A stretch of 64,000 nt of DNA, taken from the NCBI GenBank assembly GCA_964410185.1, contig CAYPFM010000001.1:80860-144859 (forward strand). Reading direction: 5' to 3'. Each line of letters starts with the position of its first letter. Position 1 is the first letter of the stretch. Of this stretch, positions 4,052-61,970 are shown piece by piece. Source of the DNA: an uncultured Candidatus Saccharibacteria bacterium. GTDB lineage: Bacteria; Patescibacteriota; Saccharimonadia; Saccharimonadales; JAUPVS01. The notes under the pieces were generated by a model. It had not been told where the DNA came from, did not search any database, and saw nothing but the letters and a program-made list of their open reading frames with translations. The position numbers were made by a program, and so were the translations under genes.

Positions 4052-4078
4052 TAAATCGTGCAAACTTAGCTTGTTTGA

Positions 4079-5896: not shown

Positions 5897-5900
5897 CTAG

Positions 5901-6974: not shown

Positions 6975-6996
6975 GATTTCCCCTTAATTATTCCGC

Positions 6997-8787: not shown

Positions 8788-8801
8788 AACCTACTCACCA
8801 C

Positions 8802-9721: not shown

Positions 9722-9729
9722 CGTGTGCC

Positions 9730-10410
9730 CTATTGTTTTACCGTGTTAGTTTGCTGGAATAAATCGCCTGGCTTTTCGGTTTCGGAGCGAGTAGAGATAA
9801 TCTTGGGAACGACTAGAGTAACCTGCTTGGTGCCATCAAAGATGGTTGGATCGAAAACCGCCGAAATTTGATAAGTTACCGTCTTCTCGCCAGCCCCGAA
9901 CGATGTCAGGACAACGTTAGAAAAGGCTTTTTTGGCTTCGGGCTGATCGTTTGTCGTGTAGGTAGTGAACTTAAGTGTATCAACGTACTTGTTCACCGTG
10001 CTGAGCGCGTTGGCATTACCAGAAATTGTCAGCGTGTTGCCTCCTGGGAAATCAAGCTTGGTGCTAGAAATGGTTGCCTCGGCTGGCGTAAGCTTGGCGA
10101 GATAATCAATCAGCCGCGAGGTGTACGGCTTCTGCTCATGGAGCTGGGTCAAACTAGCCAGCTGGTTTTGAACGGTCAATATTTTGTCTAGGTTAGGAAT
10201 CGCCTTGAGCGCGGCGGTGTCTTTTTTGATGTCGTTATTCAAGTCACTAATATGCTTGGTTTGCAGGACGTTAACTACCAAGAATAAGCCAATAAAAATG
10301 GTGAGTGAAAAGGCTGTTACACCCGTTGCCACCAATAAAACCATGCGCTTACTGCGTCGAGCCTTAATAAACTCGACCTTTACGTCAGGAAGGAGGTTAA
10401 ACTGGATCAT
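9730..10410 (-). CDS. pilN: PilN-like fimbrial assembly protein
   Basis: It starts MIQFNLLPDVK... (the INLLP motif of PilN), followed by a single TM. It overlaps the pilM stop by 4 nt. Confidence 0.65.
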   Translation of the reverse strand: MIQFNLLPDVKVEFIKARRSKRMVLLVATGVTAFSLTIFIGLFLVVNVLQTKHISDLNNDIKKDTAALKAIPNLDKILTVQNQLASLTQLHEQKPYTSRLIDYLAKLTPAEATISSTKLDFPGGNTLTISGNANALSTVNKYVDTLKFTTYTTNDQPEAKKAFSNVVLTSFGAGEKTVTYQISAVFDPTIFDGTKQVTLVVPKIISTRSETEKPGDLFQQTNTVKQ

Positions 10411-11447
10411 TCCTGTCGCTCCGCCAAGCCCACGGCAACACCAAAGTTATTCGAAATTGCCATTAGCTCGTTCTGTCGTTCGGGTGGAAACGCGATGTTC
10501 CGCCAGGCGTTACCAATCTCTACGCTCACACCAAACTTGTTCGCGATGTAGGTTGGGAATTCTGGTAATGTCGAAGCGCCACCGGTGACAATAATTCGTT
10601 CTAACTTATTGGCAGGATAACGCGTCTGGAAGAACTTGATTGATTTCTCGATTTCGCCAACCAGTAGGTCGACAGTACTGATAATTGACTGGTAGACCTG
10701 CCCTTCGAGCTTGTCTTTACTCAAACCAAACTTAAAGACGAACTGTTCAGCCTGAGCTTCTTCGATACTCAGATTCTGCATGGCCGCTCGAACGATGGCT
10801 TCGGTTCCAGTTGGGATTGAACGTGTTAGGCGCGGCGCGTCGTTAAAGGTAACGACTATGTCCGCACTCTGGTGGCCAACATCGATAACCATCTGGGCCG
10901 CGGCGGTACCAGGTGCCACCATGGCGCGGGCCAAGGCCAGGTTGTCGGGCTCAAAAGCGATAACGTTCAGGCCAATTGATTCCAGCATATCCAATCGCTT
11001 CTCGACAAAGTCGTTGCTCACACTGGTCAGGAGAACTTCGACCTTGGTCTTGTCTTTGGGTGAATCCCCTATCACAGCCCAGTCAATTTTTGATTCGGCT
11101 AGTGGCGTAGGAATGATTGAATCGGCCTGGAAGCGAATTGATTTAGCCAGCTCAGCTGGTGATAATCGATCGATATCAACAACGGTAGTAAAGACCTTTT
11201 GTGATGGAATACCAACGGCAACATTGCGGGTATCGATGTGCGACTGACTAATTAGCTCCTTTAGGACCTGGACTAACTTTTGCTGATCGGCGTTGGCATC
11301 ACTGGCGGCGATCTTAGGATCAACTGGTGTGTGAGCGTATTTAATGAGCTGCCGGGACGAACCGGTACCGTGTAATTGAACCAACCTGATAGCTGTGGTG
11401 CCCAGGTCGAGTCCAAAGAAATCTGATACACCAGTAATAAGACTCAT
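10407..11447 (-). CDS. pilM: PilM, actin-like ATPase of the pilus alignment complex
   Basis: The 346-aa product has FGLDLGTTAIRLVQL (phosphate-1 motif of the actin/HSP70 fold) and IIVTGGASTLPEF. Confidence 0.85.
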   Translation of the reverse strand: MSLITGVSDFFGLDLGTTAIRLVQLHGTGSSRQLIKYAHTPVDPKIAASDANADQQKLVQVLKELISQSHIDTRNVAVGIPSQKVFTTVVDIDRLSPAELAKSIRFQADSIIPTPLAESKIDWAVIGDSPKDKTKVEVLLTSVSNDFVEKRLDMLESIGLNVIAFEPDNLALARAMVAPGTAAAQMVIDVGHQSADIVVTFNDAPRLTRSIPTGTEAIVRAAMQNLSIEEAQAEQFVFKFGLSKDKLEGQVYQSIISTVDLLVGEIEKSIKFFQTRYPANKLERIIVTGGASTLPEFPTYIANKFGVSVEIGNAWRNIAFPPERQNELMAISNNFGVAVGLAERQE

Positions 11448-11492
11448 ATTACTTCGATTATAGCATAAGCGTCATGCTTGTACGCAAGCCTT

Positions 11493-14327
11493 TTATAAGA
11501 CTGGCGGCAAGCTGGTAATTGATTGGTAGACATTCGAGCCGGTCGTGTTGCCAATGACCGAATCAAGTATTGATGGTGTCGGTGCTAAATACATTTCTTG
11601 ACTGAAGTTAAAGATCTCGGCGATGTTACCATCCAGGCCGGTTGTCGTTGCTGGCGGGCCCTCGTTAAACGGTATATACGGCTGCGCCACTGGCTTTGGC
11701 GTACACAACCAACTATTCACCATCCAACCCGTTCCACTCGTATCCGGGTCAGCCGGCTCATAGACCAACGTACAGTTCTTACTTAAGTCATTACTGCTAC
11801 TCCAGCTAAACTGCGGGTTGGTTGTCGATGCAGGCCAACAGACAGCGTTATCAAGCCAGGCCCCCGTATTGTGATGCCTTGGTGCCCAGCTAAAACAACT
11901 GTCGCCTGCGTGTCGGTAACCAGCACTGGCTGAGATACCCGGCAACCAGGCCCAATAGAAATTAGGTTGGCTCGTGCACAACCAGTTGTCGTCCCAGCTT
12001 GGGCTGCCGCTTTCTGGAGTTGCGAAGCAATTCGCACCACCGGGGTTTCCGGCTGAGCTCCAGACCGTAGTCACTGATGCGGGGGTTGGGGTTGGGTTAG
12101 GAATACTATTCTCGACGGTTCCCCTGGCCCGCTGAAATTTAACCTGGTTAGCGATAAACGAACCAGTGATGGTGAGGTTCTTTTGGCAATTGTTATAGAT
12201 GTCTTTGGCGAGGAAGAGGCTGAGCCCATTGGTACAGGTATAAATGGTGCCCTTGGTGCCATCGTCTCGCGGCTGCGCGATGTAGACGCCATCGAGCTGC
12301 GTCACGTTAGGGCCAATGTAAATGTTGCCCTTGGCGATTAAGTAGTAGCTCGGAATCGCTGATGTGTCTGACCATGAAGTGTTTTGGAAAGTGATGTTGG
12401 CATTAATGTAGGCGTCGCCATCCACGAAGCGAACAACCTGGCTACTGTCTGGGATGCTTTGCGGGAAGCCAAAGGCGATGGTGGTACCGCCCGGCAGTAT
12501 GACTGGATTCTTAGTGGCATCCTTACTGGCACTGTAGTAGTCCGGTATACAACGATACATGCCGCTGTACCCACTATTATCCTCAGTCACACCAGTTGGT
12601 GTACCGCCGTTATTGATCATATTACCAAAGCTCAAATCATTCGGGGTTGTCGGGGCCGTTAAGCCGTTTCGGGTTCCGGCCGTGTTGAACTTGTAGATCT
12701 GACCCAAGGCAAGTGCGCCAAACTGACTGGAGGCACCACCATAGTATGTGCCGCTTCCGCTCGTGACCTTCTTGTTGAAGGCCCAGATGCTAGCGGGCGG
12801 CTGCCCCGCCGTAGTCTTGGCACCGGGCGTACAGGTGCCGGTGGCCGGCGAATCCATAAACTTCCCCCCAGCCGCGACATCATTACCAAAGACTTTGAGA
12901 TACGGCTTGGCGGCGATGTTAAAGCTGCTCGAGCATGGCTTATTAAACTCGGCTTGGCTAATTGTCGCATTGGCTGTTAATGATCCCGGCCCCGCTTGGA
13001 CATATGGCCCGAATGGATGCGACGCACCAGTCCGAGACGATGGGAACGCAAACGTCTGGACGCCATTCAAGTTCATGGTGCCAAGCGGTGCGATGGCGCG
13101 ACCTTGCGAGCCCGGACTGTAGGTGTAGTTTAGCTGCGCCGTATAGGATACACCGACTTCTGGTGAGCCTGGCGTAATAGTGACGGTACAAGCCGGTGGT
13201 ACACAGCTATTTAACGAGGCCCTGCCACCATCTGGCTGGTGATAGAGCTCTAGGTTATTGCCATTCATTGATCCATCCGGATTTCGGCCGATACCATAGA
13301 CGAACACATCGTGCTGGTAGGCATCGCCAAATCTATCCAAGTCTGCCTTGGGCACCACGAACCAGTCGTGCCAATTTGGCACTCCCGTTCCATACGGCGG
13401 TTTTCCCGGCCCAATCACCGTTCCGTTAAGCGTCAACGGATACTGGCTAGCGTCATAAGCACCAACGAAGACCTGCTTATTCAGGTCGTTCGGGTCAACA
13501 TGATTGATATATACATGGACTTGGGTCCAGTCGTAATCTGGATCTTGCATCGATCCAACTAAGCCCGCTTGGACAGTATAGGTATTATTATTTCGATGCG
13601 CGTAGGTAAAGTCCCCCAGGTCACAGCCCCATGCAAAGAGGCCACCCCGGACTGGCCGATCGTTAATCGTAACATTCATCCGCAGCGTAGAACCACCTCT
13701 ACTGTTACACGCACCAAAGTCATTGCCGTCTGCTGGCTTACCGCTTGCAGGGAAACCCGGGCTGACAACACATTGGTACCCTAACGAAGCAAAGTAGTTA
13801 ATCTTTTTATCCTCAGCAAAAATCGTATAGGTACCAGGGTTCGTGAAGCCCCCGCCTGGCCCGTAGTTGAACACCATTGAGGTGATGCTCACATCACCCT
13901 GGTTCGGACCGTATGTATAGCCGAGAATTTGCCCGTCTAAGCTGGGCACGGTTGGCGATGTGCTAACCACCTTGGTGTTGGTCGAAATGAGGTTATGGTC
14001 GACTGCGCTACAAACCACACCAGCGACGTTATATTGAATCGGCACCGAGGCTTGGCCATAATTCACGCTTATGTCTGCCGTGGTTGACGGGTCACCAGGC
14101 GGCGATAGCCAGGCAGTTTGAGCGTTGCTATTGTTGGTGTAGCCACAGTTAGCGAGATAGTCAGTAACCTCGGCAGGCATAGCTGGGAAATTCCCGGTCG
14201 GAACGGCGGCGGCATGTGCCTTCCCACCTAATCCGATACTAAGCGCTACCGAAAGTACCACGCCGAGTGCTGCTGCGTAAGCCAGCTTGGTTCTGAGATT
14301 TCGTGGCAGGAACATTTGATGCATCAT
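11493..14327 (-). CDS. Large secreted protein at the head of the pilus operon (candidate adhesin; function unknown)
   Basis: The 944-aa product has a Sec signal peptide (...LGGKAHA|AAVP). It is Gly/Asn/Thr/Pro-rich and carries three C-terminal Cys/Trp repeats (aa 766-880). It overlaps the upstream gene as ATGA. Confidence 0.7.
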   Translation of the reverse strand: MMHQMFLPRNLRTKLAYAAALGVVLSVALSIGLGGKAHAAAVPTGNFPAMPAEVTDYLANCGYTNNSNAQTAWLSPPGDPSTTADISVNYGQASVPIQYNVAGVVCSAVDHNLISTNTKVVSTSPTVPSLDGQILGYTYGPNQGDVSITSMVFNYGPGGGFTNPGTYTIFAEDKKINYFASLGYQCVVSPGFPASGKPADGNDFGACNSRGGSTLRMNVTINDRPVRGGLFAWGCDLGDFTYAHRNNNTYTVQAGLVGSMQDPDYDWTQVHVYINHVDPNDLNKQVFVGAYDASQYPLTLNGTVIGPGKPPYGTGVPNWHDWFVVPKADLDRFGDAYQHDVFVYGIGRNPDGSMNGNNLELYHQPDGGRASLNSCVPPACTVTITPGSPEVGVSYTAQLNYTYSPGSQGRAIAPLGTMNLNGVQTFAFPSSRTGASHPFGPYVQAGPGSLTANATISQAEFNKPCSSSFNIAAKPYLKVFGNDVAAGGKFMDSPATGTCTPGAKTTAGQPPASIWAFNKKVTSGSGTYYGGASSQFGALALGQIYKFNTAGTRNGLTAPTTPNDLSFGNMINNGGTPTGVTEDNSGYSGMYRCIPDYYSASKDATKNPVILPGGTTIAFGFPQSIPDSSQVVRFVDGDAYINANITFQNTSWSDTSAIPSYYLIAKGNIYIGPNVTQLDGVYIAQPRDDGTKGTIYTCTNGLSLFLAKDIYNNCQKNLTITGSFIANQVKFQRARGTVENSIPNPTPTPASVTTVWSSAGNPGGANCFATPESGSPSWDDNWLCTSQPNFYWAWLPGISASAGYRHAGDSCFSWAPRHHNTGAWLDNAVCWPASTTNPQFSWSSSNDLSKNCTLVYEPADPDTSGTGWMVNSWLCTPKPVAQPYIPFNEGPPATTTGLDGNIAEIFNFSQEMYLAPTPSILDSVIGNTTGSNVYQSITSLPPVL

Positions 14328-16065: not shown

Positions 16066-17430
16066 ATGAAAAATCTTTACCGCATTCTCATTGAACCCCG
16101 CTCGTCAGAACTAGATATTCGTAACCGTGAACGTGTCCTGAACTATGTCCTTGTTGGCTTGCTGACATTGGTGGCTGCAGAATTCATGAACTCTGTTTTA
16201 GGCTTTGCTGTTAGCGGGCAGCACCTGAGCTTTTATCGGATGCTTTCGTTCTTCGTCGTACTAGCCATTTTCACAACCTTGTACTGGCTGGCGCATTGGC
16301 GTGGCTACATCAAAATTGCGGGCTTATCAGTAGTGATACTTCTGCTCATTATCACTGCAGCAGTTATCTTGGGCTGGGGCATTCTAACACCCACAGGGGT
16401 TCTTCTGTTCGGTCTCATCATCGTTATGGCGGGCATCCTGCTTGGGGCGCGGTACGCGTTGTACACTGCCCTGCTCAGCATTGGTTTACTGTCGCTGTTT
16501 GAATACCTTAAGGTTCGCCATGTGGTGACGCCAAACTTGGCCTGGATGCAGCGACCATCGAGTTTCAGTGACATCATGGGTTTCGCTGTTATCTACGTCA
16601 TTATTGCGCTGGTGTCGTGGCTATACAACCAGCAGATGGAGCGGTCCTTAAAACGGGTGCAGCAATCCGAGGCAGCGCTAGAACGACAGAACGAGCGGCT
16701 GGAGGCAACCGTCAAAGAACGAACCGCGGAGCTGGAAAGCGCGCAGCTAGAACGGCTGCAGCAAGTCTACCGGTTTGCGGAATTGGGTCGGATTAGTAGC
16801 GCCCTCTTCCATGATTTAGCCAACCATCTAACGGCTGTTTCTTTGGACATTGAGGGGTTGGGTAATAGTCAAAAATCGGAGCTGATGCTTCGGGTGCAAG
16901 CTGACATCGGCTACATCGATGATGTCGTGCAGCGGGTCCGTCTGCAGCTGCGCGGCCAGGGTTCAGTGGAGCGGTTCAACGTGGCCTCCGAAATTAATAA
17001 AGTGCTTAAGATTTTGAATTACAAAATGGTTCAATCAAAAATCACCTTTCATTTTCAAAAGCCTAAAAAGACCATCTACCTGGAAACTGATGTCATCCCT
17101 TTTCGGCAAATCATTAGTAATCTCATCAGCAACGCCATAGACGCCAGCAATCATAAAAACGCGCCGACCCGTAAGATTGCGGTCCAACTTAGTGAAGTTG
17201 ATGGTGCCATCATCATAGCGGTCACCGATTGGGGTATCGGCATTAAGGCCGCTCAACAAAGCAAGATATTCGAGCCCTTTTACAGTAGCAAAACCGATGG
17301 TACGGGCATTGGATTATTCATCGTTAAACAAATTGTCGAGAATGATCTGCATGGCCGCATCACTGTTTCTTCAAGCCCCAAAACTGGCACCATATTCACC
17401 GTAAGTCTGCCCAGCCATGGAGTCCGCTAG
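16066..17430 (+). CDS. Sensor histidine kinase with a 6-TM membrane-embedded sensor and no periplasmic domain
   Basis: Six hydrophobic helices span aa 24-187 with very short loops, followed by a coiled-coil linker. Catalytic motifs are H-box SALFH(249)DLANHL, N-box LISNAIDAS, G1 DWGIGI, F-box FEPFYSSK and G2 GTGIGLFIVKQIV. Confidence 0.9.
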   Translation: MKNLYRILIEPRSSELDIRNRERVLNYVLVGLLTLVAAEFMNSVLGFAVSGQHLSFYRMLSFFVVLAIFTTLYWLAHWRGYIKIAGLSVVILLLIITAAVILGWGILTPTGVLLFGLIIVMAGILLGARYALYTALLSIGLLSLFEYLKVRHVVTPNLAWMQRPSSFSDIMGFAVIYVIIALVSWLYNQQMERSLKRVQQSEAALERQNERLEATVKERTAELESAQLERLQQVYRFAELGRISSALFHDLANHLTAVSLDIEGLGNSQKSELMLRVQADIGYIDDVVQRVRLQLRGQGSVERFNVASEINKVLKILNYKMVQSKITFHFQKPKKTIYLETDVIPFRQIISNLISNAIDASNHKNAPTRKIAVQLSEVDGAIIIAVTDWGIGIKAAQQSKIFEPFYSSKTDGTGIGLFIVKQIVENDLHGRITVSSSPKTGTIFTVSLPSHGVR

Positions 17431-19231
17431 CCTCGCCTACTTGGCGGCGGCCGGCCGTCTGGTTGGCACTTCTAGCCCCAGCCCAACTGACTGGCAGGCC
17501 CACTTTCGCTACCCCACCAGTTTTGTGCCGGCTTTGATGCTACAATCGCTGACCGAAATCGAAGGTGCCGCCCCGCTACGCGAAGATATTTGCCGACTGC
17601 TCCTGAAAGCGCGGTCTCCAAACTGGTCGTTTAACTACTGGTTACGCGACAGCCCGGAGAGTCAGCAATTTCCATATCCCGACGATTTAGACGATACTTT
17701 TTGTGCCCTGATTGGCCTCTACAAGCACAACCCTAACCTGATTGACGAAGCCGCTCTGGCGCGGATTGTTCACCTGTTGCTGGCCAGCGAAACCACGGTT
17801 GGTGGACCGTATCGCACCTGGCTGGTTAAACCAGATAGTCCACCTGAATGGCTGGGGGTTGATGTCGCCGTAAACGCCAACATCGCCTACTTTTTGCAGC
17901 TTATCGGCAGTCCATCCCCGCCTTTGCTACAGTATCTGGCAGCCAAAATTATGCAGGGCGACTACGCCTCTGACTACTACCCGAACCCCGTTCCAATCTG
18001 GTATTACTTGGCCCGTGTCTGTCCGGCTGGCTGCCGTAAGAAACTCCGCCAAGACATTGAGGCCACCAGACCCACCAATGCTCTGCAGTTAGCACTTTCG
18101 ATCAGCGCGCTCCGGCAACTTGGCGCACCGGTACAAAGACGACAGAAAACCCTGCGCAACCTGCAATCAAACGACGGCAGTTGGCCAGCGGCCGCTTTCT
18201 GTCTAGACCCAGCCCGCGACGGTCAGACGTACTACCACGGCAGTGCCGCCCTCACCACTGCCTTTGCGCTTGAGGCTCTGGTTGAGTCACCAAAAGTCAC
18301 CACCAAGCCAGCCAGCCCTATCCCCAAACTACAAGGCGGCATTGTCGAGCAGGCTCGTTCTGACATTGAAGAGCTCGGCCCTGACCTTCGAAAACAGGCC
18401 CTGCTGGCCTTGGAGCGCACGCTCAAGAGCGACCCTAAACATCAGATTACTTTACTGCCTTATTGGGTCGGCCAATCATTGCGCAAGCCGCCTCCCGCCG
18501 ATGAACAATTTTATGGCACCCTCGGGCTGGCCAACTTGTTCGGTTGGATGGCCTACACCATCTACGATGATTTCTTAGATGATGCCGGCCAACCACCACA
18601 ACTGCCCGTTGCCAATTTTGCCCTTCGCTCATCCGTTGGGTATTTTCGGGCTGCCCTCCCCAACCACGCCGCGTTTCAACACCACGTCAACCAAACGTTT
18701 AATATAATCGACAATGCCAATGCCTGGGAGCAAGCTCACTGTCGCTCCGTCGATAAACCACCGCGTTATGGCGCTCGATCCAAGTTGGCCGAGCGCTCCA
18801 TGGGGCATGTTCTGACGCCCGTAGCCGTCCTACTGCAAGCCGGGCAAACGCTAACCAGCTCTGACGTAGTCTGTTTCCAAAAAGCCTTTCATCACTATCT
18901 TATTGCCCGCCAACTGGATGATGATATGCACGACTGGCAGACCGACTTTACCAATGGACACGTCAGTTATGTTGTCGCCGAGATTCTGCGAGCCAACGCG
19001 AGCCACAACATGCAGCAGCAATTTTGGCACCATACCCTGCCGCGTGTTTGCGACGTTATGAACGGACATATTGTGTCTGCTCGGGGCGCACTCAAACAAG
19101 TGAAGATCTTAAAGCCCGATAACGTATTGGCCCAGCTGCTGGACAATCTCGAAACCTCAGTTCAGACCACCCTGACTAAACAAACACAGGCCACCAAATT
19201 CTTGGCGAGCTACCGTCAAATTTCTAAATAA
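17417..19231 (+). CDS. Fusion protein: class II terpene-cyclase-like (SHC/prenyltransferase alpha-alpha barrel) N-domain + class I isoprenoid-synthase/ComQ-like C-domain
   Basis: The N-domain has NWSFNYW...FPYPDDLDDTFCALIGL (DxDD(T) at 17681-17698; compare PDVDDTA in squalene-hopene cyclase) and a QW-type repeat LQSNDGSW (18164-18184). The C-domain has YDDFLDD (18566-18583) and LDDDMHDWQTD (18917-18946) about 117 aa apart. The gene overlaps the kinase stop by 14 nt. Confidence 0.6.
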   Translation: MESASLAYLAAAGRLVGTSSPSPTDWQAHFRYPTSFVPALMLQSLTEIEGAAPLREDICRLLLKARSPNWSFNYWLRDSPESQQFPYPDDLDDTFCALIGLYKHNPNLIDEAALARIVHLLLASETTVGGPYRTWLVKPDSPPEWLGVDVAVNANIAYFLQLIGSPSPPLLQYLAAKIMQGDYASDYYPNPVPIWYYLARVCPAGCRKKLRQDIEATRPTNALQLALSISALRQLGAPVQRRQKTLRNLQSNDGSWPAAAFCLDPARDGQTYYHGSAALTTAFALEALVESPKVTTKPASPIPKLQGGIVEQARSDIEELGPDLRKQALLALERTLKSDPKHQITLLPYWVGQSLRKPPPADEQFYGTLGLANLFGWMAYTIYDDFLDDAGQPPQLPVANFALRSSVGYFRAALPNHAAFQHHVNQTFNIIDNANAWEQAHCRSVDKPPRYGARSKLAERSMGHVLTPVAVLLQAGQTLTSSDVVCFQKAFHHYLIARQLDDDMHDWQTDFTNGHVSYVVAEILRANASHNMQQQFWHHTLPRVCDVMNGHIVSARGALKQVKILKPDNVLAQLLDNLETSVQTTLTKQTQATKFLASYRQISK

Positions 19232-20325: not shown

Positions 20326-21300
20326 CTAGGCGACTTCGCGAACTTCAGCGGGTTGGTTGAACAAGGTTATAAGCTTATTAACGACGTAGGCATTGACCCA
20401 GACCTTACCCTCTAGCGCGCTTGAACCTCGTTGGCCTTTCGCAAAGGCTCGAATTTGTCTCTTGGTGCTATATCTTGCCTGAACGCGACTGTGATTTTCG
20501 CTGGCGGCAATCATAAATAGCACTTCCTTTTCAGAATCATCAGAGAATCTATCAGGTAATTCACCGCGATCAAGCGCTTGTTCGATAACCGTACGTAATT
20601 CTTCTGGACCCATTCCTTCTGGTTTCTGTGCCTGGTCATACATAGGAATGCGGCAACGAAGAATTGCAACCTTCGGCTCTTCATCTTCCTGGTCAGGCAC
20701 TTCAATACCAACCAGGTTTACAATCGGCGGACGGAGGAAGCTCTTATTGGCAACCTTGTGCTCGGGATCAACAAAGTACATGCGAGTTTTTCCAGGATGA
20801 GTCTTATCCATAAAGTAGTAGTGTGGATGAAAGGTGTGTTTTTCCTTATCACCAACGTGAGTAATGCGCCGATAGACGTGACCATCCTCGTAGGCCTGTC
20901 CAAGTCGCCGCACCGCACTAGCAGCACCGTATGGCAGCAATCGTTCTAGGAGCATGTCGGCCTCATACCCATCGTACTCAGCAGTACAAGGCGGTATGAC
21001 CCAGGCGTGGTTATCACGAATGTCATCGAACATCATGCCGATTCTGTCTGGCTTAGATTGATGTTGTTCTGGTATGACGGGCTTGTTGAAGGTTTCGGTA
21101 ATGGGTTCAGGCCCGCGAGTAATAACCGCCGGTTCAGGCCCAAAGGCGTGTTCGACTGGCAAAAAGTCAGTAGTTTCCGCAAGTGCCCTTTCGGCTTCGT
21201 TGGCTGGCCGACTCAATAAATAGGCATCAAAGTCTGCTTGGGCAGCTCTGCTCGTTGGGTCAAACGCTGCGTCTACATCAAAATTTATTCGTTCATTCAT
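20326..21300 (-). CDS. Hypothetical 324-aa protein (no recognisable domain)
   Basis: It is a long clean ORF with a candidate promoter upstream. It is acidic and I recognised no motifs. Confidence 0.6.
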   Translation of the reverse strand: MNERINFDVDAAFDPTSRAAQADFDAYLLSRPANEAERALAETTDFLPVEHAFGPEPAVITRGPEPITETFNKPVIPEQHQSKPDRIGMMFDDIRDNHAWVIPPCTAEYDGYEADMLLERLLPYGAASAVRRLGQAYEDGHVYRRITHVGDKEKHTFHPHYYFMDKTHPGKTRMYFVDPEHKVANKSFLRPPIVNLVGIEVPDQEDEEPKVAILRCRIPMYDQAQKPEGMGPEELRTVIEQALDRGELPDRFSDDSEKEVLFMIAASENHSRVQARYSTKRQIRAFAKGQRGSSALEGKVWVNAYVVNKLITLFNQPAEVREVA

Positions 21301-36279: not shown

Positions 36280-38169
36280 CTAGATAGCGTCTGATGGTGG
36301 CATCAAAGGTGGGGGCACCGGTGGTGGTGCGCTAGGGTTTGCGCTGCCAGCCGTGCTGTCAATTGGTTGGCTTGGTGGCAAAAGACTGGTTGGGACGTTT
36401 GGATTAACGCCGTTCATCTCTGGTGGTGCGCCAAAGGGTTGTGGCCCTGGCAGTGGTGGCGGAGCTGGTGCTGGCGCCGGGGCGGCGGCTGGGAATGGTT
36501 CGGACATTGGCGTTGCTGGTGGGGCTGGAGCCAGAGATGGTTCAGGTGGTGCCAGAGGTTGCAGCGGCGGCATTGATGGCGATGATGAAATCGGTGCAGG
36601 GGCTGGCTCAGGATTAACCGGTGGTAGCGATGGTAAGGTTGGAAGTGCTGCGTCATTGGGGACACCACCGAAAACTGGGTTCGGCTGTGGCATTGGTTCT
36701 GAGGCTGGCTCAGCAGGCGCAGTACCACGAAGATCAAGGTTTACTGGCTGTGCACCGAGCGCGGCGATTGGGTCAAGTGGACGAGTCGAGGGCTCGGCAG
36801 CAATTGCCTCATCAACGGCTTCACGGGCATCTTCAAGTTGCTCACCCCTGTCGGTAGCCTCGTTTGCAGGCTCTTGAGGAGGTTCCTGGGTCGGGGTCTG
36901 CCCGACTGGCAGGATTGGCATTCCATTGAGGTCGGCTGGACGATTTAAGATTTGCGGGCTGGTGGCAGTACGATCGACTGCTGGCAGGCTCAGTGGGTCC
37001 GGCGAGGCATCGACTTGCATACTCTCAGGCACACTGTTAGCAGTTAGCTGGCCACCCATGGTTGGTGGCTCAAGCGCCATACTGGCTCGGTTAGGCATGC
37101 CGGCTGGCATATCATCGGCAAGTTGTTTGTCCTTTTCACTGGCATCCGTTGAAATGATCTCGTTAACTGGAGCTGGTGGTGAAACGGGTGGGAGTGGTGG
37201 CAGTGGAGGGGGCGGCGGTGTTGATAGACCTCCGAGCGCATCCCCTGCCTCTTCCTTGTTGTCTGTTGGTTGGTCAACCGGGGTGTCGACTGGTTTTGGC
37301 AGATCAGCTGGCTCTGGCGCTGCTTCGACATGAGAAATTTGCAGCGAACCATCGGCAGCTTCTTGGTTTGGTTCGTTTGTTTGCGTACCGTCATCGATCT
37401 TCGTCGCCGTCGTTGGGATATCTTTGCTGGCTTCAAGCTTGCTGGCGATCAGTTGCTGGTTGGCGCCGGCACTCATGAGTTCGGCGGCCAGAGACATGGT
37501 TCGTGGACTCGTCTTGGTGTTACTAAACCGTTCGGTCTCGGCCACAATACCGGTCATAAAGGCGGTAGCCATCTGACCATCAAGCGGATCATTGGTTAAA
37601 CCATGAACCAGCTCGACAAGCATTTCCGATAAACTACTCGCATTAAGGTCTACCCAATTAATGGCGCCGAGGTTCCCCTGGTCTTTGTTGTTAACAGAAA
37701 TAACAGTGGCGTCATGCAAAATACGACCGTGGTCCATAATTGCTTTGTCTAGATCTGTTCGTTCATGCACGCCAAGCGCCAAGACAGCATCGACATTAAA
37801 GTCACCCTGGCTAAAATCGAGGTCTTTGTCACTAATGCTGGTGCGATACGGCGTAATAAAGATCTTAACGACCGTGTCTTCTACCTTATAACGCAGCTTG
37901 TCGGCTTTGGATTTATCGAGAGCGATAATAAAGTCCCGCAACGAATCGGTATTCTTCTCGAGCGTGTCATCTGGTTTCAGAAATTCGATGGTCGAAGGTA
38001 CTGCCCCACTAAAAACGGCCGTTCCGTGCTTTCCCAAGTGGTTGAGCAACAGCGTAAAACCAATACAGGCCGCCAACTGGTCAACAGAAGGGTTGGTACT
38101 GACAGTTACCAGTACATTGTTAGCCTCTTTGAGGCGGTCGATAATCTGTTGTAACGCGTTTTGATCCAT
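36280..38169 (-). CDS. DHH/DHHA1-like phosphoesterase homologue (NrnA-like position) with a Pro-rich C-terminal tail of about 380 aa
   Basis: The N-terminal ~250 aa resemble the NrnA/DHH fold, but the motifs deviate (VSTNPSVDQLAA where HxxPDGDAxGS is expected; MDHG where DHH is expected). The remainder is Pro/Ala/Ser low complexity (PPPPPLPPLPPVSPPAP...). Confidence 0.55.
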   Translation of the reverse strand: MDQNALQQIIDRLKEANNVLVTVSTNPSVDQLAACIGFTLLLNHLGKHGTAVFSGAVPSTIEFLKPDDTLEKNTDSLRDFIIALDKSKADKLRYKVEDTVVKIFITPYRTSISDKDLDFSQGDFNVDAVLALGVHERTDLDKAIMDHGRILHDATVISVNNKDQGNLGAINWVDLNASSLSEMLVELVHGLTNDPLDGQMATAFMTGIVAETERFSNTKTSPRTMSLAAELMSAGANQQLIASKLEASKDIPTTATKIDDGTQTNEPNQEAADGSLQISHVEAAPEPADLPKPVDTPVDQPTDNKEEAGDALGGLSTPPPPPLPPLPPVSPPAPVNEIISTDASEKDKQLADDMPAGMPNRASMALEPPTMGGQLTANSVPESMQVDASPDPLSLPAVDRTATSPQILNRPADLNGMPILPVGQTPTQEPPQEPANEATDRGEQLEDAREAVDEAIAAEPSTRPLDPIAALGAQPVNLDLRGTAPAEPASEPMPQPNPVFGGVPNDAALPTLPSLPPVNPEPAPAPISSSPSMPPLQPLAPPEPSLAPAPPATPMSEPFPAAAPAPAPAPPPLPGPQPFGAPPEMNGVNPNVPTSLLPPSQPIDSTAGSANPSAPPPVPPPLMPPSDAI

Positions 38170-44634: not shown

Positions 44635-45708
44635 TTAGCTGGAGCGTATGAGCAAATAATCGGCCATACCTTGCAAGAACTCGGTGCCCTGGGCAGACCA
44701 GTGGCGACTATTTTTGTGCAAGGCTTGGACGGCTTGAGTACAATAGTTTTTTGCTTGGGTTTGGGCGTATTCCAGTGCACCCGTCCGACGAACAATTTCT
44801 TGGCACTTCTTAAATTTTGTTGGCGTCAGTTTTTGATCGCCCAGGCAAGCCAGCAAGAATTTGCGGTCATCCGGGTTGGCGTGAGCCAGGGCGTGAACCA
44901 TCAAGAGGGTTTGTTTGCCCTCTCGGATGTCGTCCAGTGTGCCCTTGCCGGTTTTGGCTTCATCTCCAAACATACCGATGATATCGTCGGTGATTTGGAA
45001 GGCCTGGCCGGCGGCCATGGCGAACGGCGTCACACCATCTGTCACTTCACAGCCAGCCCCCGCCAGTACCATACCGACATGCAAAGGATTCAGCATCGTG
45101 TATGTGGCGGTTTTCCATTCCTGCATCTTTAAAACATCAGCTTCGGTGGCTTTTTTACGATACTGAATCATGGGGTCGGCAATCTGACCATGGACGGTCA
45201 CGACCAAGGTTCGGTTCAGGATGCTGAGCACGTTACTTCGCAGCTCGGGCGGAGCATCAAGATTGGCCAAGATCATCATGGCCGCGTGGTTGCCAAGCAG
45301 TGCGGCATTAGTGGCCAGCGTTTCGCCGAGGTGCTCATCGCCAACCGCGTTGGCAAGTTGTACGTGTGCGGTTGGCCCGCCCCGCCGAGTCAAGGAGCGG
45401 TCTTGAATATCGTCGGTGATTAACAGATAGGCATGGACCATCTCGATGGCCCGGGCCGCTTGCATAATCATGGGCATGTTAGTGCCACCGGACATGGTAT
45501 AGCCCTCGATAACCAGGGCGCCCCGCAGCCGCTTCCCGCCCCGAGCGAGTATCTCGCAGTATGCCTGGAGCGCGAGTTTAGAGTAATCTCCGTACTGCGC
45601 CGCCGACGTCTCGGTAAGATGGGTCACATAAGCAGCAATATCGGCATCGATGGCCTGTTTATGCTGTTTCAAGCGCGACTTAAATGTATCGGTACTCGCC
45701 TCTGTCAT
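44635..45708 (-). CDS. trans-Polyprenyl diphosphate synthase (GGPP/FPP synthase family)
   Basis: The first Asp-rich motif is LLITDDIQDRSLTRRG, the second is FQITDDIIGMFGD, and a GKRLR motif is present. Confidence 0.85.
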   Translation of the reverse strand: MTEASTDTFKSRLKQHKQAIDADIAAYVTHLTETSAAQYGDYSKLALQAYCEILARGGKRLRGALVIEGYTMSGGTNMPMIMQAARAIEMVHAYLLITDDIQDRSLTRRGGPTAHVQLANAVGDEHLGETLATNAALLGNHAAMMILANLDAPPELRSNVLSILNRTLVVTVHGQIADPMIQYRKKATEADVLKMQEWKTATYTMLNPLHVGMVLAGAGCEVTDGVTPFAMAAGQAFQITDDIIGMFGDEAKTGKGTLDDIREGKQTLLMVHALAHANPDDRKFLLACLGDQKLTPTKFKKCQEIVRRTGALEYAQTQAKNYCTQAVQALHKNSRHWSAQGTEFLQGMADYLLIRSS

Positions 45709-45733: not shown

Positions 45734-46696
45734 TTACTTTTGGTTAAGTTCGGATTGGAGGTTCTTCAGTTTTTCGTAGAGCGCGTACAATTCGCCAGGA
45801 ATTTGGTTAATCGCAGTTGGCTCGGCGATTGGTTGGTTCTTGGCATCGGCTAGAGTCTGACGTCCATACATACCTACATCAAAGTAACGGCCAGACTTAA
45901 GCCCAGCCCGCATGGTATCAACCACTCGCGATGCATAGGTGGTACTGGTGTCCATACCGACAGCAGTCGTCTCGTCACCGCAAGCCGAAAGTACATTCCC
46001 AATAAAAATCATCAGTGCAGCACTGTCCGGCTGAAAACGAGGCTTCTGTGCGCCTTCGTCATCTGTAAAGTACTCGCGGTCGACGCGCAATAGCATAACG
46101 GGCTGGCCATTTTTCTCACCAATTTTCACCAGCTGACCGGTCGGTTCAGTCACCAGTTCGTGTTCAGCCGATAGCGCATAGCCAAAAGGTAGGATTTCGT
46201 CCTGTTCGTTGGCAACAAAACCTGGCTGTTGTTCAGCCACAAAGCGAACCATGTCATACTCGGTCTTGTCAGTCATGTCGACACCATACTTAACACTAAT
46301 GTGCGAAACTTCGACTTCGTTAATCACCCGGTATGGTGATCCAGCAAAAATGTTAGTATCTTGTTCTCCGCCAATCGCGGCTTCGGCTTCAACCTTCCAG
46401 ACCAGTCCGCCTTCCTTAAGACGAATCTGAGCTGTGCCTGGGACGTCCTGCTCGGTACCCACGCCAAACCGTTCAGCTATAGGGCGTAGCTCTGCTTCTT
46501 GGGCTTCTGTTAATGGCAATCCTTCCGTTGCGTTCCGTGGTTCGGTCGGTGCCGGAAAGACTTCCAGCGGATCTGCCTCACGGTCGCCCGTAATCAGCTC
46601 GACGGCATCGGCCATCCACTGCGTACGCTGGTCTATGTAGGCTTGGACTTCAGCTCGTTGCTGCTCACCATTATTTGATTGTTCTTGATTGGTCAT
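45734..46696 (-). CDS. Hypothetical 320-aa protein
   Basis: It is a clean ORF with no recognised motif. Confidence 0.55.
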   Translation of the reverse strand: MTNQEQSNNGEQQRAEVQAYIDQRTQWMADAVELITGDREADPLEVFPAPTEPRNATEGLPLTEAQEAELRPIAERFGVGTEQDVPGTAQIRLKEGGLVWKVEAEAAIGGEQDTNIFAGSPYRVINEVEVSHISVKYGVDMTDKTEYDMVRFVAEQQPGFVANEQDEILPFGYALSAEHELVTEPTGQLVKIGEKNGQPVMLLRVDREYFTDDEGAQKPRFQPDSAALMIFIGNVLSACGDETTAVGMDTSTTYASRVVDTMRAGLKSGRYFDVGMYGRQTLADAKNQPIAEPTAINQIPGELYALYEKLKNLQSELNQK

Positions 46697-57325: not shown

Positions 57326-58003
57326 TTAATGACGATTTTGGTTGGCGAGTTTGACCAGCTGATAGCTGACCGCGTAGACGCTCATCAGCAACACGAACAC
57401 CATGGCGGTGGTTGTAAAAACCTGAGGATGCCCCGATGGGTTCAGAAACGGCTCCGAAACATCAAAGATGAGGCCAGCTGGGTTAACCAAAATGTCCCAG
57501 CTGTTCCAGCGTAAGTAGCGACCGAGATAAATCGCAAAACTACAGAGGAGCAGCACGCCTGCCACCAAGCCGTAACTAGCCCGCGGGCTCAAACGCTTTT
57601 TAAGTTCCTGATGGATACCAAATAAACCAAGATACCCCAGTACAAAACCATTAAATGTGAACGACAGGAACATCACGACGTCATATAACAGGCTAACAGC
57701 CCCCGTCTCGGTCAGGTGAATGATGTCACTGGCAATATAAAAGGCGTTGGGCAAAAAACCAATCCACAGCGCAGTTAGTACCAAATTGCCGAAACTCAGC
57801 CAAGGCTTCGTGCGCAACCGAGCAATCAGCCACCAAGCCAAGCCAAGTGGTACCCAAGCTAAAACTAGATTCCAGGCTAGAAACCAGTAAGTCGGTTGTT
57901 GACTGGCAATCATGCGGGCGGCTAACAGGCCGACGCTAACGGCGCTGGATAGCCCCAGTGTTACGAGCAGTTGCTGGCGAATTCGCCGCTGGTTTACTCC
58001 CAT
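57326..58003 (-). CDS. DUF1361-like polytopic membrane protein
   Basis: YWFLAWNLVLAWVPLGLAWW is characteristic of the family, and the protein has multiple TM helices. Confidence 0.55.
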   Translation of the reverse strand: MGVNQRRIRQQLLVTLGLSSAVSVGLLAARMIASQQPTYWFLAWNLVLAWVPLGLAWWLIARLRTKPWLSFGNLVLTALWIGFLPNAFYIASDIIHLTETGAVSLLYDVVMFLSFTFNGFVLGYLGLFGIHQELKKRLSPRASYGLVAGVLLLCSFAIYLGRYLRWNSWDILVNPAGLIFDVSEPFLNPSGHPQVFTTTAMVFVLLMSVYAVSYQLVKLANQNRH

Positions 58004-58057
58004 GGTTTTTCTATTATATCAACTAACAGAGGTAACAAGTAGGTTATAATAAACTCA

Positions 58058-58702
58058 ATGCAGTTAATCAATTCATTCCTCGAGGCTTTGAGAAATATCG
58101 TCCGTGGCGTTATCCGTCCGATCGCGCACCTACTCAACAAAGCAACCGGAGGACGCTTGAACCCCAACGTCATCACCCTCTTTGGTTTTGCCATGCATAT
58201 CCCCATCGCTCTGCTAATTGCAAAGGGGTACTTCATCTACGCGGCTATTGCCCTTGCCTTCTTCGGTCTATTTGACGCTTTAGACGGCGCGCTGGCCCGC
58301 GAGCAAAATCGCTCTAGCAAATTCGGTATGCTCCTAGACTCAGTGACCGACAAAATGAAAGAAGCCATCCTCTATATTGGAGTCGGCTACTTCTTTGTAT
58401 GGTCGGGGCGACCCTATATGGCCGTATGGGCAATTGTCGCCTGTGGCGCCGGGCTTTTGGTTAGTTACGTCAACGCCTGGGGTGAAGTTGTAACCAAAGA
58501 TATGAAGAGCTCAGCCGAAACCAATAAAGCCTTTCGGGGCGGCCTCATGAGCTTTGATATCCGTATGTTTTCACTTGTTGTTGGCCTAGCCATCAATCAA
58601 TTGCCAGCCGCCATTATTATCATCGCGGTTTTGTCTTGGGTCACCGCAATTGAACGCCTGATTCGGATTAGCCACCTTATTCATCGCCATGCTCAAAGCT
58701 GA
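58058..58702 (+). CDS. CDP-alcohol phosphatidyltransferase
   Basis: It matches the signature D-x2-D-G-x2-A-R-x8-G-x3-D-x3-D perfectly: DALDGALAREQNRSSKFGMLLDSVTD. Confidence 0.85.
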   Translation: MQLINSFLEALRNIVRGVIRPIAHLLNKATGGRLNPNVITLFGFAMHIPIALLIAKGYFIYAAIALAFFGLFDALDGALAREQNRSSKFGMLLDSVTDKMKEAILYIGVGYFFVWSGRPYMAVWAIVACGAGLLVSYVNAWGEVVTKDMKSSAETNKAFRGGLMSFDIRMFSLVVGLAINQLPAAIIIIAVLSWVTAIERLIRISHLIHRHAQS

Positions 58703-59339
58703 TTTTCACACCCACTCCGTCGCCTCCCCCGATGGCGGGATTAGTGCCGAAGATTACCGCCAACTCCTCGACCGCGGCCAGCTTGATTACATCGCCATTA
58801 CCGATCACAACCGGATCGACTTCGCTCAGCAGATGCATCAAGAGTTGGGTGACAAAATCATCATTGGCGAAGAAGTAATGACTAGCGAGGGTGAACTCAT
58901 CGGCTTGTTCTTAACCAAATTAGTTGAGCCGGGTCAAACTGCCCGGAAGACGGCCGAAGCAATTCGGGATCAGGGCGGTATCGTCTACCTGCCCCACCCT
59001 TTTGAAACCATCCGTCACGGTGTCCAGGCCGAGACGTTAGACAAAATGCCCAAGCTCATCGATGTAGTGGAGGCACACAACGGACGGGCCGTTCTCCAGA
59101 ATCGCAGCCCGCAGGCCCTCACTTGGGCAACCCTCCACAAAAAACCAACTGCCGCCAGCAGTGACGCACATGGCGCCAAAGGCGTCGGTCACACCTATAC
59201 GGTCGTCGGGCAACCGCTCACCAAAGACACCCTGCAGTCCCTAATCACCCAAGCAGAGCTTGTGCACGCTCGACCGCCTCTCATTAGCTTGACCTACCCT
59301 AAAATTAATCGACTCAAAAATAAACTGAGGGCCCGCTGA
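58689..59339 (+). CDS. PHP-domain metal-dependent phosphoesterase
   Basis: It has ADFHTHS, ITDHN, YLPHPF and SSDAHG motifs. It overlaps the upstream gene by 14 nt. Confidence 0.75.
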   Translation: MLKADFHTHSVASPDGGISAEDYRQLLDRGQLDYIAITDHNRIDFAQQMHQELGDKIIIGEEVMTSEGELIGLFLTKLVEPGQTARKTAEAIRDQGGIVYLPHPFETIRHGVQAETLDKMPKLIDVVEAHNGRAVLQNRSPQALTWATLHKKPTAASSDAHGAKGVGHTYTVVGQPLTKDTLQSLITQAELVHARPPLISLTYPKINRLKNKLRAR

Positions 59340-59860
59340 TGCACGACTGGCTAATGGCGATTTTGTTCTTCCTGCCGGCTGGTGTCGCCAACGCCACGCC
59401 TGTTGTTGCTAATCGTATTCCGTTGATTAATAAGTGGGTTACCCCGATGGATTTTGGCTTGAGCTGGCGCGGCAAACGCCTACTTGGCAGTAATAAAACC
59501 TGGCGCGGCGTTGTTACGGGCACGTGCCTAGCTGGGCTAACTGGGCTACTGCTCTATCCGCTTACTAACACGACAGAAACTCGCTGGGAGATAGTTGGCC
59601 TTAGTTTGCTGATGGGATTTGGCGCCCTGCTTGGCGACGCCTTTGAGAGTTTTCTGAAGCGCCAACGGGGCGTTCCTGCCGGCCATAGCTGGTTCCCGTT
59701 TGACCAGATTGACTACATTATTGGTGGCCTCCTGGTAATCCTACCCTTCTCGGAAATTTCTCTACGAACAGCCGGCGTGATTTTTGTAACTTACTTTGCA
59801 CTGCACTTAATTATTGCCTATAGCGCTTACAAGCTAGGGCTCAAGGACAAGCCAATCTAG
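59339..59860 (+). CDS. CDP-archaeol synthase (CarS/DUF46)-like CTP-dependent lipid cytidylyltransferase
   Basis: LPAGVANATPVVANRI...PMDFGLSWRGKRLLGSNKTWRGVVTG...GALLGDAFESFLKRQRG...FDQIDY closely follows my recollection of the archaeal CarS pattern. It overlaps the PHP gene stop as TGATG. Confidence 0.7.
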   Translation: MHDWLMAILFFLPAGVANATPVVANRIPLINKWVTPMDFGLSWRGKRLLGSNKTWRGVVTGTCLAGLTGLLLYPLTNTTETRWEIVGLSLLMGFGALLGDAFESFLKRQRGVPAGHSWFPFDQIDYIIGGLLVILPFSEISLRTAGVIFVTYFALHLIIAYSAYKLGLKDKPI

Positions 59861-60300
59861 GCTTCGCCGCGTTCTTTCTTGCGTTGGTCTGGCGTTTCGT
59901 CTGGGCGAGCATAATCATCTTCGAGCCGCCAGGTCGTACCAAGCTCGGGCGTCGAAACTTCGACGATATCACAATCAGTAACCCCCATCAGCCGGTGTTT
60001 TTGACCGACTTGGGTGCTGTAGCCCTGCCCCATTTGAAGCTCCGTCTCGATCAACTCACCCTTGTTATTTTCCCAGATAACCTTGGCTTGGCCACTGCTC
60101 AAGAACCAGCTCTCCTGTTTTTGATCATGGGCCTGAAGACTGAGGCGCGCTCCGGCATTAATATGCAGCAACTTCCCCATGTACGGCGCGTCCTCGGGCA
60201 CCCAGTGAATCTCATAGCCCCAGGGCTTATCGACGCGCTTGGCATAGGCCTGGTTCACAAAGTTGGTTGGGTCAAATTTTGGTGCATTGGTGTCTCCCAT
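59857..60300 (-). CDS. Cupin-domain protein (type II mannose-6-phosphate-isomerase-like)
   Basis: It has KPWGYEIHW...GKLLHINAGARLSLQAHDQKQESWFLSSGQAKV...GQKHRL. Confidence 0.6.
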   Translation of the reverse strand: MGDTNAPKFDPTNFVNQAYAKRVDKPWGYEIHWVPEDAPYMGKLLHINAGARLSLQAHDQKQESWFLSSGQAKVIWENNKGELIETELQMGQGYSTQVGQKHRLMGVTDCDIVEVSTPELGTTWRLEDDYARPDETPDQRKKERGEA

Positions 60301-61421: not shown

Positions 61422-61970
61422 GTGGGCATGTTCGGTCAAGACGATCAAAACGACGATATTTCAACAGTAAATCCAACACTTAACGGGTCAGACACTTCAA
61501 CACCCGCAGTACCTGATACTCCTGCTGTTGAACCTGCAGCCGCGCCAACCAGTGATGTTGCCCCTACCGCTCAGGCTGTTCTCGCTGATAGTGCAGCCAC
61601 TGAACCTACACCAGCAGTGGCACCTGCCGAAGCCGCCCCAGCCGCAGCTCCTGCTGTCGAGACTACCCCTACTCCAGCAATCGCGGACCCCACTCCTGCT
61701 GTTACTCCTGCAACCGGCACCGATGAAACCGCCCTCCTAGCCCTTAAAAAACAAGCTCTCGAGGAACTATCTCCCCTCCTTGGTGAACTTGACCAAACAC
61801 CAGAAGAAAAGTTCAAGACGACCATGATGATGATTCAGGCTACGGACAGCTCCGCCCTTGTGACTTCTGCTCACGAAGCGGCTCTACAAATTACCGACGA
61901 AAAAGTTCGGGCGCAGGCTCTCCTTGATATCGTCAACGAGATTAATTACTTCACTCAACCAAAAGAATAG
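61422..61970 (+). CDS. Hypothetical protein with a Pro/Ala/Thr-rich N-terminal half
   Basis: It is a clean ORF preceded by the SD-like GGGGG. I recognised no motif. Confidence 0.45.
   Translation: MGMFGQDDQNDDISTVNPTLNGSDTSTPAVPDTPAVEPAAAPTSDVAPTAQAVLADSAATEPTPAVAPAEAAPAAAPAVETTPTPAIADPTPAVTPATGTDETALLALKKQALEELSPLLGELDQTPEEKFKTTMMMIQATDSSALVTSAHEAALQITDEKVRAQALLDIVNEINYFTQPKE

Follow-up and report, generated by a model that had tools for sequence, protein, structure and literature searches.

The 64,000-nucleotide window analysed here (contig CAYPFM010000001.1 of assembly GCA_964410185.1, positions 80,860 to 144,859 of the forward strand) comes from an uncultured Candidatus Saccharibacteria bacterium and carries a three-gene operon at 58058-59860 on its plus strand. 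The operon is predicted to encode, and probably represents, a self-contained phospholipid head-group synthesis unit of environmental Saccharibacteria that acts on backbones the cell cannot make. The first gene encodes a CDP-alcohol phosphatidyltransferase, the second a soluble phosphoesterase of the PHP family and the third a small membrane protein of the CarS family. On balance, our judgement tilts modestly towards a three-step route to phosphatidylinositol (PI), in which salvaged phosphatidic acid would be converted to CDP-diacylglycerol (CDP-DAG), then to phosphatidylinositol phosphate (PIP) and finally to PI. The genes and the expression signals read beside them are the following.

58058..58702, plus strand: gene 1 (214 aa), a CDP-alcohol phosphatidyltransferase of the PIP-synthase/archaetidylinositol-phosphate (AIP)-synthase type, assigned from PF01066, NCBIfam ranking, PDB relatives and conserved residues.

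58689..59339, plus strand: gene 2 (216 aa), a soluble PHP-family metal-dependent phosphoesterase, assigned from Pfam, the AlphaFold2 (AF2) fold and invariant residues.

59339..59860, plus strand: gene 3 (173 aa), a predicted CarS-family integral-membrane cytidylyltransferase with five helices, assigned from PF01864, NF003114, fold and motifs.

58023..58050, plus strand: a promoter-like site CTAACA-16-TATAAT with 10/12 matches, the -10 element of which ends 7 nt before the first ATG.

59326..59330, plus strand: a Shine-Dalgarno-like GAGGG read from the sequence, inside the PHP gene and 9 nt 5' of the CarS-like start codon.

Genes 1 and 2 overlap by 14 nt and genes 2 and 3 by 1 nt, the stop and start codons at the second junction overlapping as TGATG. 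A first-pass annotation of the window had described three plus-strand genes with these two overlaps, a perfect CDP-alcohol signature in the first product, and PHP and CarS assignments for the other two; the coordinates of the open reading frames (ORFs) are exactly as it gave them, and the three family assignments hold in the searches reported below. The three genes would be co-transcribed and translationally coupled. No Shine-Dalgarno sequence is found ahead of the ATG at 58058, and because of this and of the short distance from the -10 element the first cistron is maybe leaderless; a transcript that starts at the promoter-like site may, from its sequence, have no leader. In a promoter and terminator scan of the region, site counts were not above those of shuffled controls, and the promoter-like site is therefore weak.

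The conservation of the operon was followed in 80 related genome loci, taken with flanks of ±5-6 kb, plus one duplicate of the window (L001), giving 81 in all. Nearly all of these loci, and of the closest homologues, are labelled Candidatus Saccharibacteria or Saccharimonadales. The co-directional trio is present in 67 of the 76 loci with enough upstream sequence, at CarS identities of 40-66%, and its junctions nearly always overlap or are ≤4 nt apart. An arrangement kept this widely and with such tight junctions is not chance, and the translationally coupled operon proposed at first is thus also a co-conserved one. Eleven loci retain the trio while every flanking gene differs from those of the window, and in 21 diverged loci the trio genes are the only recurring families. 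Where the transferase lies on the opposite strand (L062, L073 and L088), the PHP and CarS-like genes are still coupled. In L058 a PLD/Cls-like gene borders the CarS-like gene on one side and a transferase gene on the other. The gene directly upstream of CarS in L074 encodes a PgsA-type transferase joined to a YqeG/PgpP-type HAD domain and displaces both the transferase and the PHP gene; the three steps keep their logic there, with another head group and another phosphatase fold. Two metagenomic proteins, P0367 and P0376 (336 and 353 aa), hold an N-terminal AIP-synthase-like CDP-alcohol transferase and a C-terminal CarS-like domain in a single chain, each coming from one short contig in which an assembly or frameshift artefact is possible. 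Lipid kinases of the DgkB/YegS type adjoin the module in L050, L061, L074 and L075, in varied orientations; no diacylglycerol kinase is present in the window, and these neighbours (4/80 loci) are supportive but minor. The transferase–CarS fusions, the PgsA–PgpP fusion and the kinase neighbours back the activate, transfer, dephosphorylate logic that the first-pass annotation had suggested.

Other variants of the locus were also seen. In L002, a close relative with 66% CarS identity, the PHP and CarS-like genes (1686-3582) directly follow a DUF1361 gene; no transferase gene was detected in between, and it has apparently been lost in this relative. A phosphoesterase of the Exo_endo_phos (EEP) family adjoins the module at L062:6500-7390 and L088:3020-3775. 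Inositol-polyphosphate phosphatases and phosphodiesterases of the sphingomyelinase type belong to this family, and the gene may encode another lipid head-group enzyme. Three archaeal contexts were found, with CarS alone in two and an overlapping transferase–CarS pair in one (L087). The latter is an archaeal contig with diphthamide synthase and an archaeal helicase domain; its CDP-alcohol transferase–CarS pair (4424-6112) is followed by a 196-aa CTP_transf_1-like membrane protein, which may be a second cytidylyltransferase or else a polyprenol kinase.

The gene 1 product carries DALDGALAREQNRSSKFGMLLDSVTD, a stretch of 26 residues that is the complete CDP-alcohol signature D-x2-D-G-x2-A-R-x8-G-x3-D-x3-D (D73, D76, G77, A80, R81, G90, D94 and D98), and matches Pfam PF01066 with 64 bits (E=2e-17). 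Among 52 sequences of the family R81 is conserved in ≥90% and the other seven signature residues are invariant. Against the NCBIfam models it scores 101 bits for AIP synthase (AIPS) and 99 bits for PIP synthase (PIPS), about four-fold higher than for PgsA (26 bits) and PssA/ClsA (26-28 bits); the same AIPS/PIPS-over-PgsA ranking is seen in all operon transferases tested from other loci. Its best PDB matches are the mycobacterial PIP synthases 6H53 and 6WM5. In MtPgsA1 the residues D68, D71, D89 and D93 are catalytic, and R94, S132, R155 and R195 form the inositol-phosphate site (Grāve et al., PMC6506517). The catalytic aspartates align to D73, D76, D94 and D98 of gene 1, and the four site residues to K99, S136, R169 and R200, which are conserved across the 52 family members; position 99 is K in the window transferase and R in ≥90% of the family. 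The equivalent of R94 is said to be specific to users of inositol phosphate (Ino-P; PMC6506517). By its residues and profile ranking, the gene 1 product would belong to the inositol-phosphate-using PIP/AIP-synthase group, and its acceptor is most likely inositol-1-phosphate.

The gene 3 product passes the curated threshold of the CarS-like Pfam family PF01864 (95.2 bits, E=6e-27, cutoff 22) and matches ApCarS (PDB 5GUF) with E=3.6e-15 as a single sequence and E=4e-22 with the family profile. Its AF2 model (pLDDT 92) has five long helices, equal to the intramembrane fold of ApCarS, and a Foldseek search of the PDB returned 5GUF as the only match with E<1e-3 (TM-score 0.75/0.81, rmsd 1.9 Å, 33% identity). 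The motifs PAG-AN-P, P-D-G, G-NKT-RG, GD--S--KR and FPFDQID are invariant in 50-81 homologues and common to the gene 3 family and ApCarS. Judged from its predicted structure, the gene 3 product is a true CarS-fold protein. The family is large, with 1,726 clusters at 50% identity (E≤1e-3), and takes in other phyla of the candidate phyla radiation (CPR; Dojkabacteria/Nomurabacteria) as well as true archaeal CarS; the cluster look-ups behind this taxonomy gave names for 5 of 20 proteins.

CdsA, the usual bacterial enzyme for the activation step, had at first been called unrelated to CarS, which is wrong. Residues 52-112 of gene 3, with the motif GDAFESFLKR…DQID, give a partial match of 41 bits to the CdsA family PF01148 over its catalytic C-terminal region, and TmCdsA (PDB 4Q2G) is the weak second-best structural match of the gene 3 model in Foldseek; CarS and CdsA are therefore homologous. 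They belong to the same clan, and the reaction proposed for gene 3 is the CdsA reaction. However, gene 3 scores only 18 bits against the NCBIfam CdsA model NF008635 (cutoff 385), and it has neither the full length and N-terminal domains of a canonical CdsA, of which the N-terminal half is missing, nor the signature …KD…HGG..DR.D. The HGGxxDR part of this signature was not found in a six-frame scan of 928 kb (the window and the 80 loci), which covers flanks only and so says little on whole genomes.

The gene 2 product scores just over the Pfam cutoffs for PHP (PF02811, 29.3 bits, cutoff 26.4) and PHP_C (PF13263, 30.3 bits, cutoff 21.3). Its AF2 model (pLDDT 94) matches the PHP phosphoesterases 3E38, 2ANU and 7UG9 in Foldseek with probability 1.0 and a TM-score of ~0.7. 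The residues H7, H9, D15, H40, E62, H103, D159 and H161 (HxH…D…H…E…H…DxH) do not vary among 53 homologues, and we take them to be the metal ligands. No transmembrane segment is predicted. The C-terminal helix was considered as a membrane anchor and is not convincing in this role, having a net charge of +6 but merely modest amphipathicity. Pfam and NCBIfam gave no PgpA-family match, and hence no homology to BT_1525, for any of the three operon proteins; if the gene 2 product is a PIP phosphatase, it would be a non-orthologous replacement of the PgpA-type enzyme. Nothing in the gene 2 sequence points to its substrate. Its position in the operon and the HAD domain that takes its place in L074 make a head-group (PIP) phosphatase the most likely role. 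We give about even weight to the prediction that it is the founding member of a new PIP phosphatase class.

In the proposed pathway the CarS-family enzyme would act as the CDP-diacylglycerol synthase of the cell, converting CTP and phosphatidic acid to CDP-DAG and PPi, as its family, fold and context suggest. Phosphatidic acid would come from the host or, in some lineages, from salvaged diacylglycerol through the DgkB-type kinase that adjoins the module. The transferase would then convert CDP-DAG and myo-inositol-1-phosphate to PIP and CMP, a step to which profile similarity and the conserved acceptor-site residues point. Last, the soluble PHP metallo-phosphoesterase would strip the head-group phosphate from PIP to leave PI, as suggested by gene context. 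Because the CarS-type gene is recurrently coupled to CDP-alcohol transferases in operons, divergent pairs and fusions, its product is taken to supply the CDP-lipid donor of these transferases. The donor is taken to be CDP-DAG and not CDP-archaeol, since the partners are a diacylglycerol kinase, PgsA–PgpP and Cls-like proteins and since CPR membranes are based on fatty acids. CPR bacteria including Saccharibacteria are described as being without membrane-lipid synthesis, yet their membranes are rich in fatty acids (PMC10939385, PMC9530719).

Several results weigh against this pathway in whole or in part. The transferase is under the NCBIfam equivalog cutoffs (101 bits against 180 for AIPS and 99 against 170 for PIPS), as is gene 3 for the NCBIfam CarS model NF003114 (131.2 bits, cutoff 148), and exact substrate equivalence is therefore not assured. 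At two positions, N139 and W141, the window transferase departs from the lysines of the family and from K135 and R137 of MtPgsA1; the family consensus at these positions reads SYVKAKGE and that of MtPgsA1 SYIKARAE, with basic residues of a secondary sulfate site located there. A myo-inositol-1-phosphate (MIP) synthase, or another source of inositol phosphate, was not among the 58 window proteins scanned. Loci L005, L061 and L067 have an AIPS-like transferase and CarS without an adjacent PHP gene, and so does the bacterial-type contig L083. It was predicted that PHP-less loci switch to a transferase type needing no phosphatase, and this failed, the transferases of L005, L061 and L067 still being AIPS-like. 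The PHP structures closest to gene 2 belong to uncharacterised phosphoesterases (3E38, 2ANU) and to RNase AM rather than to lipid phosphatases. The phosphatase step is weakened by the four loci without PHP and by these RNase-AM-like structural neighbours. Finally, the transposon-sequencing (Tn-seq) tables of the oral Southlakia epibionticum hold no CarS-domain protein and one CDP-alcohol transferase, which is at another locus and non-essential. As oral Saccharibacteria (Southlakia) appear to be without a CarS-like gene, the module is not universal or essential in the phylum; it seems to have been lost in the reduced oral lineage.

Some of these results suit a pathway with the same three-step chemistry and another acceptor, glycerol-3-phosphate or some other phospho-alcohol, in which the PHP enzyme would be a phosphatidylglycerol-phosphate (PGP)-type phosphatase and the product phosphatidylglycerol (PG) or a related lipid. 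We consider this unlikely. The want of a MIP synthase among the window proteins, the transferase scores under the equivalog cutoffs and the deviation at N139 and W141 fit it, and the PgsA–PgpP fusion beside CarS in L074 shows that the module can serve a PG branch. The transferase nevertheless scores ~100 bits as AIPS/PIPS against ~26 as PgsA, likewise in the other operon transferases tested, and it keeps the phosphate-binding residues for inositol phosphate together with the Ino-P-specific R94 equivalent (PMC6506517).

A second alternative, which we hold to be distinctly improbable, concerns gene 2. The PHP protein would be a nucleotide or RNA phosphoesterase (RNase AM- or pAp-phosphatase-like) or a hydrolase of by-products such as PPi or CMP, and needs of supply or regulation would account for its co-transcription. 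The transferase product would then keep its phosphate or lose it to a different enzyme. We know of no lipid phosphatase in the PHP superfamily; RNase AM (7UG9, 9ETK) and the amidohydrolase 2YB1 with bound AMP are among the nearest solved folds, the JGI label for the protein is 'TrpH', and the transferase–CarS pair occurs without PHP in four loci (L005, L061, L067 and L083). However, 67 of 76 loci have the PHP gene flanked by those of the two membrane enzymes, with stop and start codons that overlap; the PHP gene stays beside CarS where the transferase is on the other strand (L062, L073 and L088), and in L074 its place is taken by a bona fide PGP-phosphatase-type HAD domain. Also, the known pathway needs such a phosphatase, for which the enzyme of Actinobacteria is unidentified and that of Bacteroides is PgpA-like (PMC6506517, PMC9246714).

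A third alternative is that the operon works on isoprenoid ether lipids as archaea do; CarS would produce CDP-archaeol or a polyprenyl analogue of it, archaetidylinositol phosphate would come from the AIPS-like enzyme, and the bacterium would then have lipids of the archaeal type. It draws on a further gene of the window.

44635-45708, minus strand: polyprenyl synthase (PF00348, 186 bits), 13 kb off among housekeeping genes.

This gene had been pointed out as GGPP-synthase-like. A real polyprenyl synthase is encoded, and the more exact name 'GGPP synthase' is not established, as all NCBIfam chain-length models are far under cutoff (GGPP synthase 167 against 500). A polyprenyl synthase is in any case required for the carrier lipid of the cell wall. 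The ether-lipid alternative is very unlikely in our view. In its favour, archaeal models (CarS and archaetidylinositol-phosphate synthase) score best for both membrane enzymes, a short-chain polyprenyl synthase is present in the window, and in the archaeal contig L087 a transferase gene and CarS overlap. The CarS of Altiarchaeales is also no further from the window protein (38% identity) than from ApCarS (likewise 38%). Against it, geranylgeranylglyceryl phosphate (GGGP) synthase, digeranylgeranylglyceryl phosphate (DGGGP) synthase (UbiA) and glycerol-1-phosphate (G1P) dehydrogenase were not found among the 58 window proteins or the neighbours examined in ~90 loci; the scan of the 58 window proteins was also negative for CdsA, acyltransferases, UbiA-type prenyltransferases and PcrB/GGGPS. 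Fatty acids are reported to abound in CPR membranes (PMC10939385), and the partners of the module are bacterial diacyl-lipid enzymes (DgkB-type diacylglycerol kinase, PgsA–PgpP, PLD/Cls-like). In a rough neighbour-joining (NJ) tree the Saccharibacteria sequences group in a clade separate from the archaeal sequences that carry labels; with very few labelled archaea such a tree cannot tell horizontal transfer from an ancient origin or give the direction of any transfer. Of the two lipid sources that the first-pass annotation had offered, remodelling of scavenged host lipids fits best, and isoprenoid-based lipids find no support, the scanned proteins holding no backbone genes. We see only a slight chance that the CarS/AIPS-like pair is an archaeal-type head-group system on isoprenoid or ether backbones, either scavenged or made via the nearby polyprenyl synthase; if it were, some CPR bacteria would carry archaetidylinositol-like lipids and straddle the 'lipid divide'. 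It is hardly credible that the CarS-like protein is instead a CTP-dependent lipid kinase. The CTP_transf_1 clan does contain dolichol, polyprenol and phytol kinases, and the NCBIfam CarS score is under the equivalog cutoff. Against this, the protein has 33% identity to ApCarS, a 1.9 Å superposition and all motif residues in common with it, and fusion or coupling to CDP-alcohol transferases, enzymes that require a CDP-activated donor, is seen repeatedly.

The favoured route to PI can be set beside several known systems. Mycobacteria make PI, through CdsA, the PIP synthase PgsA1 and a PIP phosphatase, with the same three-step chemistry and the same PIP intermediate. The mycobacterial transferase is the closest solved relative of the window enzyme (6H53, 6WM5), with which it has the catalytic Asp quartet and the Ino-P phosphate-binding residues in common, while the PIP phosphatase of that pathway is unidentified (PMC6506517). 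The window operon differs in having a 173-aa CarS-type enzyme in place of a CdsA of ~280 aa, a PHP phosphoesterase inside the operon, a single overlapping operon unlike mycobacteria, and a transferase that reaches 99 bits against the PIPS equivalog cutoff of 170. In Bacteroides thetaiotaomicron a PIPS (BT_1523) and a dedicated PIP phosphatase (BT_1525) are likewise clustered and PI is made via PIP (Heaver et al. 2022, PMC9246714). The phosphatase there is PgpA-like, whereas here it would be of the non-orthologous PHP type; the Bacteroides cluster includes a MIP synthase (BT_1526) and relies on a housekeeping CdsA, whereas here the cytidylyltransferase is in the cluster and no MIP synthase was seen. 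The archaeal pathway from CarS to archaetidylinositol-phosphate synthase (ApCarS, 5GUF) resembles the operon in that archaeal models score best and that gene 3 agrees with CarS in fold, length, motifs and number of helices (five). It differs in that the window belongs to a bacterium without sign of ether-lipid backbone genes, with a bacterial diacyl-lipid context and scores under the equivalog cutoffs. The PG pathway of Firmicutes, CdsA to PgsA to PgpP, follows the same activate-transfer-dephosphorylate logic, and its last enzyme is a proven PGP phosphatase (PMC11804483). The variant in L074 has a PgsA–PgpP fusion beside CarS. Firmicutes use a HAD phosphatase and CdsA, whereas the window operon has an AIPS/PIPS-type transferase, a PHP phosphatase and CarS.

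Upstream the operon is bordered by one further membrane protein gene.

57326..58003, minus strand: DUF1361 membrane protein (PF07099, 124 bits), divergent from the operon and 54 nt away, with the arginyl-tRNA synthetase (ArgRS) gene beyond.

A DUF1361 gene lies upstream in 50 of the 81 loci (a count that includes the window duplicate) and is missing from the 11 diverged loci in which the trio is retained. The wider neighbourhood, ArgRS–DUF1361, the trio and PGI/PMI, recurs in ~50 of 81 loci and is lost in diverged loci retaining the trio. DUF1361 is a frequent neighbour outside the conserved core, and a lipid-related role is possible. Downstream, the CarS-like gene on the plus strand converges with a cupin/mannose-6-phosphate-isomerase-like gene on the minus strand (59857-60300). 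Their stop codons overlap by 4 nt (59857-59860), and there is therefore no intergenic room for a terminator. The cupin gene is found at the same position in only 4 of the 80 related loci, plus L001. The gene at 61422-61970 (plus strand) encodes a protein of 182 aa without family match; its N-terminal half is of low complexity and rich in Ala/Pro/Thr, and its C-terminal part is conserved in 49 of 81 loci. A large type IV pilus cluster, typical of Saccharibacteria, occupies 1071-14327 on the minus strand and encodes pilins with N-methylation motifs, a prepilin peptidase, PilC, two T2SSE ATPases, PilN, PilM and a 944-aa protein without Pfam match (11493-14327). Other long ORFs without Pfam match are located at 17417-19231 (604 aa), 36280-38169 (629 aa), 20326-21300 (324 aa) and 45734-46696 (320 aa), the last directly adjoining the polyprenyl synthase gene.

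The novelty implied at first is lower than it seemed. The public labels in NCBI and JGI already are 'CDP-archaeol synthase', 'PHP domain-containing protein' and 'TrpH'. Head-group remodelling was predicted by Starr et al. (2018), who proposed the conversion of phosphatidic acid to CDP-DAG and on to PI, PGP and cardiolipin (CL), with synthesis of phosphatidylinositol mannosides (PIM), from scavenged lipid in a soil Saccharibacterium (PMC6031116). Within the library that was searched, no paper was found on the operon, on a CarS-type activator in CPR bacteria or on a PHP-type PIP phosphatase, and CarS is not mentioned in Coleman 2019. What is new is the activator of CarS type and the candidate PIP phosphatase of PHP type.

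For the question of how CPR (Patescibacteria) build and tailor their membranes, the operon is a concrete, clonable handle of three enzymes. It also bears on how the CdsA/CarS split evolved, being a natural case of a bacterium in which a minimal CarS-type enzyme takes the place that CdsA has in other bacteria. The PIP phosphatase step is, to our knowledge, also unassigned in Archaea. The PHP-fold candidate, if true, would fill a step that is unassigned in Actinobacteria including mycobacteria (PMC6506517). That the reduced oral lineage seems to be without the module may be a sign of one step in adapting to mammalian hosts. If the proposed pathway is true, many environmental Saccharibacteria would take lipid backbones from their hosts but choose their own head group. 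That head group would likely be inositol, the signature lipid of the Actinobacteria on which cultivated Saccharibacteria grow (PMC10633639).

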